Assembly (NCBI GenBank): GCA_037130755.1
Contig: JBAXSI010000002.1
Span: 47,621-111,620 of the forward strand
Origin: Actinomycetes bacterium
GTDB lineage: Bacteria > Actinomycetota > Actinomycetes > S36-B12
Direction: 5' to 3'
DNA length: 64,000 nucleotides
Position 1 is the first letter of the stretch, and each line of letters opens with the position of its first letter. Positions 45,114 to 46,888 of the stretch are shown here, piece after piece. Below the pieces are notes generated by a model. It was given only the letters and a program-made list of their open reading frames with translations, made no database searches and was not told the DNA's origin. Both the position numbers and the translations under genes were made by a program.

Positions 45114-45536
45114 GTGCCGGTGCTCGTCATCCGCCAGGACCTCGTTGACGCCATCGTCGCCCATGCGCGCGCCGATCACCCCGACGAGGCGTGCGGGGTC
45201 GTGGCCGGTCCGTCTCCGGATCAGCCGGAGCGCTTCATCCCGATGGTCAATGCCGCTCGGTCCCCGACCTTCTACGAGTTCGACTCCACGGACCTGCTGC
45301 GCCTCTACCGCGACATGGACGACCGTGACGAGGTGCCGTCCGTGATCTACCACTCCCACACCGCCACCGAGGCGTATCCATCGCGCACTGATGTCTCGTA
45401 CGCGTCCGAGCCCGACGCCCACTACGTGCTCGTCTCGACCCGGGAGACCGGTAACGCTGCTGGACCGGCCGAGTTCCGGTCCTTCCGCATCGTCGACGGA
45501 GAGATCACCGAGGAACCGGTCGAGATCGTGGACTAG
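45114..45536 (+). CDS. mec: JAMM/MPN+ metalloprotease (Mec-type, CysO C-terminal processing)
   Basis: EACG plus the HSHTATEAYPSRTD (HxHx7Sx2D) JAMM motif. Confidence 0.85.
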   Translation: MPVLVIRQDLVDAIVAHARADHPDEACGVVAGPSPDQPERFIPMVNAARSPTFYEFDSTDLLRLYRDMDDRDEVPSVIYHSHTATEAYPSRTDVSYASEPDAHYVLVSTRETGNAAGPAEFRSFRIVDGEITEEPVEIVD

Positions 45537-45563
45537 GGCCGCGCGCCTACCCGTTCTGCAAAG

Positions 45564-45593
45564 GGTTCGCATGTGCGAACCTGCTACAGCAGG
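45564..45593. promoter_or_regulatory. two abutting palindromes GGTTCGCA-TG-TGCGAACC and CCTGCT-AC-AGCAGG
   Basis: Perfect arms read directly, 28 nt after the mec stop and just upstream of the putative cysO promoter. Confidence 0.45.
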
Positions 45594-45596
45594 TCG

Positions 45597-45622
45597 GGAA
45601 TGCCAGTTCCTAATCTGGCGTT
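45597..45622 (+). promoter_or_regulatory. SigH/SigR-type promoter GGAAT-N18-GTT upstream of cysO-cysM
   Basis: GGAAT at 45597-45601, an 18-nt spacer, and GTT at 45620-45622, 44 nt before ATG 45666. Confidence 0.5.
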
Positions 45623-45665
45623 CCCTGTCCACAGTCCCGCACCACCCCCTGATCCTGGAGCAGCA

Positions 45666-45938
45666 ATGGCAGTCGAGGTCCGCGTGCCCACCATCCTCCG
45701 CACCTATACGGGGGGAGAGAAGGCGGTGAGCGCCGAGGGGGAAACCCTGGCGGCAGTGATCAAGGACCTGGACGCCAGTCACCCCGGCATCGCCGAGCGG
45801 ATCGTTGACGACAACGGCCTTCGCCGCTTCGTCAACGTGTACCTGAACGACGAGGACGTTCGCTTTCTGGACGGGCTGGACACTCCCGTCGCCGACAACG
45901 ACTCGATCACCATCCTGCCGGCAGTCGCTGGCGGCTGA
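45666..45938 (+). CDS. cysO: MoaD/ThiS-fold sulfur-carrier protein CysO (C-terminal GG)
   Basis: 90 aa ending in AVAGG. Sits between mec and cysM as in mycobacteria. ORF-track start 45573 rejected. Confidence 0.85.
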
Positions 45939-45940
45939 CC

Positions 45941-46888
45941 GTGCGATTCGACTCCCTGCTCGACTCCGTGGGGGGCACCCCGCTGGTCGGACTGCCGCGC
46001 CTGTCCCCGTCTCCGCAGGTGCGGCTGTGGGCCAAGCTCGAGGATCGCAATCCGACCGGGTCGATCAAGGATCGCGCCGCGCTGGCGATGGTGGAGCAGG
46101 CTGAGAAGGACGGGCTGCTCGAGCCGGGCGCGACGCTGCTGGAGCCGACGTCGGGAAACACGGGCATCGCGCTGGCGATGGTCGCCCGCCAGCGCGGCTA
46201 CCAACTGGTCTGCGTCATGCCTGAGAACACCTCACGCGAGCGCGCGCAGTTGCTGCAGGCGTGGGGCGCGAGGATCGTCTGGTCGCCGGCCGCGGGCGGA
46301 TCCAACGAGGCCGTTCGCGTCGCCAAGGAGCTCGCGGCCGAGCACCCCGACTGGGTGATGCTCTACCAGTACGGCAACGCCGCGAACGCGCAGGCGCACC
46401 ACGACACGACCGGACCCGAACTGCTGGTCGACCTGCCTACGATCACGCACTTCGTTGCTGGCCTCGGCACGACCGGCACTCTCATGGGCGTCGGGCGCTA
46501 CCTGCGCGAGGCGAAGCCCGACGTGGCGATCGTCGCCGCGCAGCCGCGCTACGGCGAGATCGTCTACGGCCTGCGCAACCTCGACGAGGGTTTCGTCCCC
46601 GAGCTCTATGACGCCTCGGTGCTCACCACGCGCTACTCGGTCGGCGGTCGGGACGCCCTGCGCCGCACGCGCGAGCTGCTCGAAATCGAAGGCATCTTCG
46701 CCGGCATCTCGACCGGTGCCATCCTCCACGCGGCCCTCGCGATGGCCGCGAAGGCCGACGCCGCCGGCACGCCCGCGGACATCGCCTTCGTCGTGTGCGA
46801 CGGCGGGTGGAAGTACCTGTCGACCGGGGCGTACGAGGGCACTCTGGACGCGGCCGAGGACCTGCTCGACGGCCAGCTCTGGGCCTAG
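45941..46888 (+). CDS. cysM: cysteine synthase B-type enzyme (CysM, O-phosphoserine/CysO-thiocarboxylate dependent type)
   Basis: PLP lysine [16 protein letters not shown] loop [10 protein letters not shown]. Confidence 0.9.

Follow-up and report, generated by a model that had tools for sequence, protein, structure and literature searches.

Two sulfur-carrier modules, predicted to serve cysteine and homocysteine synthesis, in a 64-kb stretch of an uncultured actinobacterial genome

A 64,000-nt stretch of contig JBAXSI010000002.1 (assembly GCA_037130755.1; Actinomycetes, S36-B12), referred to here as the window, carries genes for two related sulfur carriers of the ThiS family, cysO and metO. 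In all likelihood these belong to two separate, anciently diverged protein-thiocarboxylate pathways, one leading to cysteine and the other to homocysteine, which would draw on a MoeZ-type activating enzyme (E1) encoded elsewhere and share the JAMM protease Mec. The cysO gene stands in a clpS-aosR-mec-cysO-cysM cluster like that of Mycobacterium tuberculosis, and metO follows metM, a gene for a ThrC-like enzyme that is preceded by an S-adenosylmethionine (SAM) riboswitch, as described for Streptomyces albulus. The finding is real but ordinary: both pathways have already been described in actinobacteria, their layout here is the normal one, and nothing in it overturns current understanding.

The cysteine and homocysteine modules

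The cysteine module begins with clpS (nt 44281–44565, + strand; PF02617 ClpS, E 2.8e-22), the first gene of a syntenic block like that starting at Rv1331 of M. tuberculosis, and found in the same position in the relatives L011–L013, L095 and L096. It is followed by a DUF2017 regulator gene of the Rv1332 family (nt 44565–45110, +; PF09438, E 4.3e-53), directly 5' of mec, the product of which resembles AosR but scores 91.5 bits with the NCBIfam AosR model NF051854, under the cutoff of 260. The mec gene (nt 45114–45536, +; publicly recorded start at 45120) specifies a JAMM/MPN+ metalloprotease (PF14464 Prok-JAB, E 1e-29), in which the motif HSHTATEAYPSRTD at residues 80–93 fits HxHx7Sx2D and the upstream Glu25 is present. 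The 90-aa carrier CysO (nt 45666–45938, +; PF02597) matches M. tuberculosis CysO (3DWG_C) end to end with 113 bits (E 4.6e-32) and the CysO of Amycolatopsis orientalis (4N6E_B) with 108 bits. Only 3 nt after the cysO stop codon lies cysM (nt 45941–46888, +), encoding a 315-aa PALP protein that is predicted to be a CysO-thiocarboxylate-dependent O-phosphoserine sulfhydrylase of the M. tuberculosis type, as it scores 488.6 bits (E 6.5e-146) with the CysM of that species (3DWI/3DWG) versus about 234 bits with E. coli CysM. It also passes the cysteine synthase model TIGR01136 (352 bits, cutoff 344).

The gene order of the whole module is clpS-DUF2017-JAB-ThiS-PALP-MurI-MBL-(PIN/PhD pair)-RNase PH-Ham1-like, and two CysO homologs on long contigs (80–82% identity) have the same gene context. 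A first, sequence-only reading of this DNA had placed the carrier within a mec-cysO-cysM cysteine module, and the Pfam matches, the gene order and the CysM score all agree with this. Judged by sequence, the module is an ordinary ortholog of the M. tuberculosis Mec-CysO-CysM module (Rv1334–Rv1336), and its predicted substrates are those of the published orthologs. The two share the same order and flanks, with clpS-DUF2017/aosR on the 5' side and murI-MBL-rph on the 3' side (Rv1331–Rv1341), as well as the close CysM and CysO matches (488 and 113 bits), the JAMM motif of Mec, the GG end of CysO and the location of the E1 outside the cluster (PMC8280819). They differ in that the window lacks Rv1333 and the rhomboid genes, has a PIN/PhD pair inserted before rph, belongs to an uncultured freshwater-type actinobacterium and not to a mycobacterium, and carries a gene for a 579-aa class-V aminotransferase upstream of clpS. 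In M. tuberculosis, pncB1 occupies that place.

In M. tuberculosis, CysO is thiocarboxylated by MoeZ (Rv3206); from the resulting CysO-SH and O-phosphoserine, CysM makes a CysO-cysteine adduct, which Mec then cleaves; Rv1332 (AosR) is a redox-responsive activator of mec-cysO-cysM (PMC8280819). By analogy, the CysM of the window would form aminoacrylate from O-phosphoserine, which CysO-COSH would attack, and the resulting thioester would rearrange to a CysO-Cys amide, from which Mec would release cysteine by hydrolysis. The adjacent aosR-type regulator probably puts the module under redox control.

Three observations concern the surroundings of this module. The aminotransferase gene (nt 42477–44216, – strand; PF00266, E 2e-40) is divergent from clpS; its SufS-like product scores 128 bits with the NCBIfam sufS model (cutoff 475), contains the motif RGGCSCAGPY and has a C-terminal extension of about 150 aa. 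A neighbour of this kind (579–582 aa) also adjoins clpS-aosR-mec-cysO-cysM in the relatives L011–L013, L095 and L096, and it could be a sulfur donor to the carrier system. The PIN/PhD toxin-antitoxin pair (nt 48492–49156, –) lies between the Rv1339-like MBL gene and rph, and is absent from that place in L095 and L096. In L096, a metagenome-assembled genome (MAG; GCA_018402235.1), an inserted bacteriorhodopsin-family gene (nt 8438–9265, –) separates mec from the aosR-like gene.

The homocysteine module lies 12.8 kb from the cysO module. It opens with a full-length SAM-I riboswitch aptamer (nt 57348–57471, +; Rfam RF00162; 73.7 bits, gathering score 44.4). Because a purine-rich, Shine-Dalgarno-like sequence, AAGAGAGG, directly follows the 3' P1 strand, the metM-metO pair is probably under translational control, with SAM turning expression off by sequestering the ribosome-binding site. 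The metM gene (nt 57485–58738, +; start as in the public record) encodes a 417-aa, ThrC-like, pyridoxal phosphate-dependent enzyme (PF00291, E 6.4e-72). Solved threonine synthase structures align to it only from about residue 61 (the nearest being 2ZSJ, 181 bits), and the N-terminal part carries a CxxC-x11-CxxC motif (residues 18–36, nt 57536–57592) that is conserved in 80/80 orthologs and is probably a zinc ribbon. The metO gene (nt 58735–59010, +; PF02597), for a 91-aa carrier, overlaps the metM stop codon as ATGA (nt 58735–58738). Directly 5' of the riboswitch is a PF13469 sulfotransferase gene (nt 56408–57289, +), which is also found upstream of metM in L015 (72% identity) and is not present in the Streptomyces loci.

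To place this pair among other Actinomycetota, one genome per GTDB species was scanned with an alignment of both carriers as query. The scan gave at least 594 matching stretches, of which the 80 best loci were analysed; as these were ranked against MetO, they are MetO-type loci only. Most are from Streptomyces, with others from Kitasatospora, Nocardioides, Marmoricola, Yinghuangia, Streptantibioticus and several MAGs. A MetM ortholog (61–87% identity) lies directly 5' of the carrier in every one of the 80, and the carriers that follow it are 67–84% identical to MetO of the window. The 4-nt overlap recurs in 18 of the loci, the others having gaps of 6–174 nt. A riboswitch-like sequence was detected by nhmmer 14–179 nt 5' of metM in 79 loci, and all eight loci checked with Rfam gave a SAM riboswitch match that exceeded the gathering score, among them the one that nhmmer had missed. 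The closest relative among the best 80 is a Candidatus Nanopelagicales MAG (MetO 84%, MetM 87% identical). Carrier genes identical to those of the window occur in MAG GCA_964537085.1 and in several Joint Genome Institute (JGI) metagenome samples.

Appendix 4 of GapMind 2026 (10.1101/2024.10.14.618325) describes a thiocarboxylate route from O-phosphohomoserine to homocysteine in S. albulus with four components: MetO as carrier, Mec as hydrolase, MoeZ as ligase and MetM as synthase, the last of which is there said to be "often misannotated" as threonine synthase. PMC12172450, citing Hasebe 2024, adds that in S. albulus a SAM riboswitch lies 5' of metM and that this gene guards against methionine auxotrophy. 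By its architecture, and by clear orthology to the like unit of more than 65 other Streptomyces species, the module of the window corresponds to the SAM riboswitch-metM-metO unit described in S. albulus in 2024, in which MetM would use O-phosphohomoserine and MetO-COSH to produce homocysteine. The sequence-only reading had assigned this second carrier to a riboswitch-linked, ThrC-like homocysteine module, a view upheld by the riboswitch score, the PF00291 match and the pairing in all 80 loci.

Comparison of the two carriers

Both carriers match PF02597 ThiS and align end to end by BLASTP, with 56/91 identities (62%), 76% positives and one 1-residue gap (E 9e-40). The figure of about 56 of 90 that had been counted by hand was thus accurate, and a much lower identity did not emerge. 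The alignment also bears out the shared blocks, namely the PAVAGG tail and a further 24-residue set of blocks common to the two proteins. Both genes end in GGC GGC TGA, so that each encoded C-terminus is GG followed directly by the stop and, as had been noted, no trimming is needed. The nucleotide sequences of cysO and metO are 64% identical, and the same codon is used at 27 of the 56 identical residues.

The age of the paralogy was assessed on two sets, 81 MetO sequences with verified genomic context and 123 CysO-type sequences, the latter comprising the 120 best database homologs of the window CysO, the window CysO itself and two PDB CysO sequences. Apart from the two PDB entries, all members of the CysO-type set are at least 76% identical to the window CysO, and genomic context was checked for five. 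In a neighbour-joining tree the 81 MetO sequences are monophyletic with respect to the 123 CysO-type sequences. Identity across the two classes has a median of 61% (range 46–74%), so the 62% of the window pair is typical. These sequence relationships indicate that cysO and metO are old, anciently diverged paralogs.

It is improbable that cysO and metO instead arose recently, by duplication or gene conversion, and that the two carriers are redundant in function, in which case either could serve CysM or the ThrC-like enzyme and no specificity problem would arise. The 62% identity, the long identical blocks and the common PAVAGG tail fit such a view, as does the fact that Streptomyces MetO sequences are 60–68% identical to the window CysO, close to their 67–74% identity with the window MetO; moreover, one thiosugar enzyme of A. 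orientalis can reportedly use several carriers (PMC5925218, summarising Sasaki 2014). Yet MetO proteins from 80 species form a single clade without any CysO-type sequence, codons coincide at just 27 of 56 identical residues, and four alignment columns, MetO positions 83 (S/T), 85 (I/L), 64 (D/E) and 80 (A or T versus D), are class-fixed with 0–1% overlap between the two sets, the CysO state at these columns being found also in the CysO proteins of M. tuberculosis and A. orientalis. Recent duplication or gene conversion was rejected on the MetO monophyly, the cross-class median of 61% and the codon count, in favour of ancient divergence.

Column statistics over the same two sets give about nine class-specific positions. 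In MetO numbering these are position 19 (A/S in MetO, K in CysO), 20 (E/D, not acidic in CysO), 64 (D, E in CysO), 76 (T, V/I in CysO), 77 (P, not P in CysO), 80 (A/T, D in CysO), 83 (S, T in CysO) and 85 (I, L in CysO), together with position 46 (V, L in CysO), which is weaker than the other columns. Most of the robust ones lie within the ten residues before the invariant PAVAGG, where MetO has the pattern T76-P77-x-x-[A/T]80-x-x-S83-I-I85-PAVAGG. The two proteins of the window carry the signatures of their classes, K19, E63, V75, D79, T82 and L84 in CysO and A19, D20, D64, T76, P77, T80, S83 and I85 in MetO, and the CysO proteins of M. tuberculosis and A. orientalis match the CysO state at the listed positions. 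Two further markers, an extra lysine of MetO (K52) and position 4, were dropped because both of these reference CysO proteins break the pattern; position 44, broken by A. orientalis CysO, was not counted.

The sequence-only reading had posed three questions: whether a single E1 charges both carriers, whether Mec acts on adducts of both, and how the specificity for CysM or the ThrC-like enzyme is encoded. Publications answer the first two, and partner specificity is the one that remains. The class-specific positions are candidate determinants of partner choice, and some of them may contact CysM or MetM.

Activation and processing of the carriers

Pfam found no ThiF, rhodanese or JAB domain in any called gene between 1 and 35 kb of the window. 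The window equals positions 1891–65890 of the ENA metagenome contig ERZ27299992 k141_334901 (130,323 bp). For that contig, between 35.6 kb of the window and a point about 5 kb beyond its end, precomputed Pfam matches comprise one JAB domain, that of Mec, and no ThiF, rhodanese or second JAB domain. Six-frame tblastn searches of the window, which alone cover the few short gaps between called genes, gave no E1 with E. coli MoeB as query (best E 1.7), and Mec as query matched only itself. It had been correctly seen from the sequence that the window holds one JAMM protease and no MoeZ-like adenylating or sulfurtransferase enzyme. The anomaly thereby implied, of two carriers with one JAMM and no E1, did not hold up, as a distant E1 is the standard layout. 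No CysM, Mec-like JAMM or MoeB-like E1 was found within 10 kb in any of the 80 metM-metO loci, which makes the missing E1 and protease beside the second carrier a rule for this unit and not a peculiarity of the window. Likewise Rv3206 (MoeZ), the E1 that charges CysO in M. tuberculosis, is encoded away from Rv1334–Rv1336 (PMC8280819).

Published work on relatives points to a single enzyme for several carriers. One mycobacterial MoeZ (MoeZR) sulfurates CysO, MoaD1 and MoaD2 (PMC3227635), in A. orientalis and in Actinoplanes alike a unique MoeZ accompanies several carriers (PMC5925218, in its summary of Sasaki 2014), and in the S. albulus pathway, as given in the GapMind 2026 appendix (10.1101/2024.10.14.618325), MoeZ is the ligase of MetO and Mec its MetO-cysteine hydrolase. 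By extension, a MoeZ-type E1-rhodanese encoded elsewhere would adenylate and sulfurate both carriers of the window, and Mec would be the only JAMM available for MetO adducts.

The C-termini of other carriers bear on the role of Mec. A C-terminal extension is present in 30 of the 80 MetO orthologs, 29 of which (lying within loci L019–L093) end in ...AVAGGC and one in ...GGAGA, and 16 of the 120 CysO homologs have 1–4 residues after GG. The extra cysteine is C-terminal in the MetO sequences, although the published description says N terminus. By analogy, a GG-Cys end of MetO is a mimic of the CysO-Cys adduct cleaved by Mec. Residues beyond GG have to be removed for adenylation to take place. As no JAMM was found within 10 kb of their genes, the 30 extended MetO proteins require a protease encoded elsewhere, and the 16 extended CysO homologs would likewise need trimming by a JAMM from outside their neighbourhood. 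As the MetO of the window already ends in GG, Mec would be needed here only for a putative MetO-homocysteine amide, and its relevance to the methionine branch of this host depends on MetM turnover giving that amide, which is likely but unproven.

A further explanation, that each module has its own E1 and JAMM elsewhere in the genome, so that neither MoeZ nor Mec is shared, has a precedent in Wolinella succinogenes, where a JAMM (HcyD) and an E1 (HcyF) of its own reportedly accompany the carrier HcyS (Krishnamoorthy & Begley 2011). We consider it very unlikely here, as all 80 metM-metO units lack both enzymes within 10 kb even though 30 of their carriers need C-terminal trimming, as a single MoeZ serves several carriers in the actinobacteria described (PMC3227635; PMC5925218, the latter in its summary), and as the GapMind 2026 appendix (10.1101/2024.10.14.618325) gives Mec and MoeZ to the MetO pathway.

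Several points weigh against two pathways joined by a common MoeZ and Mec. MetM scores 269.6 with the generic thrC model TIGR00260 of NCBIfam, above the cutoff of 167.1, and none of Mec, CysO, MetM and MetO has a model of its own in that collection, so that the MetM assignment rests on context and orthology. In its appendix, GapMind 2026 (10.1101/2024.10.14.618325) names Mec for MetO maturation only, of which the MetO of the window needs none, and an action of Mec on this protein presupposes the putative MetO-homocysteine amide. The host belongs to an uncultured metagenomic lineage, and its MoeZ is presumed from relatives.

Another reading takes metM for the gene of an ordinary threonine synthase and has the carrier serve molybdopterin, thiamin or protein modification, with no homocysteine module at all. 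It would suit the TIGR00260 score, the threonine synthases as nearest solved structures, carrier scores just under the cutoffs for SAMP1 (56–58 versus 60 bits) and MoaD (TIGR01687, 38–44 versus 49.5 bits) and the report of a cyanobacterial homolog as threonine synthase/deaminase (PMC12172450), but is scarcely credible given that the operon is under a SAM riboswitch and not under threonine control, that all 80 loci have enzyme and carrier side by side, 18 of them with the same 4-nt overlap as the window, that neither MoaE nor ThiG is nearby (Pfam found no MoaE among the window genes), and that the homologous Streptomyces pair reportedly rescues methionine auxotrophy (PMC12172450, citing Hasebe 2024). 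Gene context and model scores also speak against MetO acting as a MoaD, ThiS or SAMP protein, and these roles were rejected.

Related systems and wider meaning

The metM-metO unit shares with that of S. albulus, as far as the latter is described (Hasebe et al. 2024, AEM 90:e01247-24), the SAM riboswitch, the ThrC-like enzyme and the ThiS-family carrier. Across more than 65 Streptomyces species, MetM is 61–66% and MetO 67–74% identical to the proteins of the window, with the same architecture and no local E1 or JAMM, S. albulus itself being likened by description. Unlike the 29 of 80 MetO orthologs from Streptomyces and its allies that end in GGC, the MetO of the window needs no maturation, and further features of the unit are its 4-nt overlap and its distance of only 12.8 kb from the cysO module. 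In A. orientalis, one remote E1-rhodanese, MoeZ, is summarised as charging paralogous carriers of the CysO, ThiS and MoaD types, including the supply to BexX (Sasaki et al. 2014; PDB 4N6E; PMC5925218), which is comparable to the arrangement proposed here, as is the similarity of the two CysO proteins (108 bits). The window differs in having no thiosugar or secondary-metabolite enzyme; both of its carriers would serve primary amino-acid synthesis.

More distant parallels exist. The HcyS-HcyD-HcyF-MetY system of Wolinella likewise uses the thiocarboxylate of a GG-type carrier as sulfur source for homocysteine, with a JAMM that processes both carrier and adduct. Its synthase, however, is a MetY-type O-acetylhomoserine sulfhydrylase and not a ThrC-like member of the PALP family, and the system has a JAMM and an E1 of its own encoded next to the carrier, which is not the case near metO here or in the 80 loci. 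A carrier-homocysteine adduct is reported for the Wolinella HcyS system (Krishnamoorthy & Begley 2011). The archaeal SAMP1/UbaA/desampylase (HvJAMM1) system also pairs a beta-grasp GG carrier with a JAMM hydrolase, but the proteins of the window fall under the curated NCBIfam cutoffs, the carriers for SAMP1 as given above and Mec for desampylase (63.8 against 130), and their genomic context is biosynthetic.

Elsewhere in the window, a gene at nt 2706–4151 (+) encodes a fatty-acid-desaturase/AlkB-type protein fused to rubredoxin and adjoins a TetR gene. The region nt 6547–13887 (+) carries acyl-CoA carboxylase beta and alpha, AtuA, an AtuA-ferredoxin-domain protein, TetR and acyl-CoA dehydrogenase, a layout of the acyclic-terpene/leucine type of catabolism. 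ARAGORN called a 95-nt tRNA-Cys (nt 3602–3696, –) inside the AlkB-rubredoxin ORF, which is probably false, and an 83-nt tRNA-Leu (nt 51085–51167, –); the only tRNA found by Rfam at the gathering threshold is at nt 60487–60558. The G+C content of the window is 68%.

With these results an uncultured actinobacterium, probably from fresh water, joins the organisms predicted to make both cysteine and homocysteine by means of protein thiocarboxylates. Across the 80 species examined, the MetM-MetO unit comes as riboswitch, enzyme and carrier, without its own E1 or protease nearby, and the label threonine synthase should be withheld from ThrC-like genes that stand after a SAM riboswitch and before a gene of the ThiS family. 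The residues that distinguish the two carrier classes are swap candidates for probing the partner specificity of CysM versus MetM. We tentatively suggest, as one possibility, that the nine or so class-fixed positions act as a partner code that insulates the cysteine and homocysteine branches, MoeZ and Mec being common to both carriers. Were this so, and were a MetO-homocysteine amide also a product of MetM, the one Mec, linked to aosR, would form a node common to the two branches and tie methionine synthesis to the redox-controlled cysteine operon.

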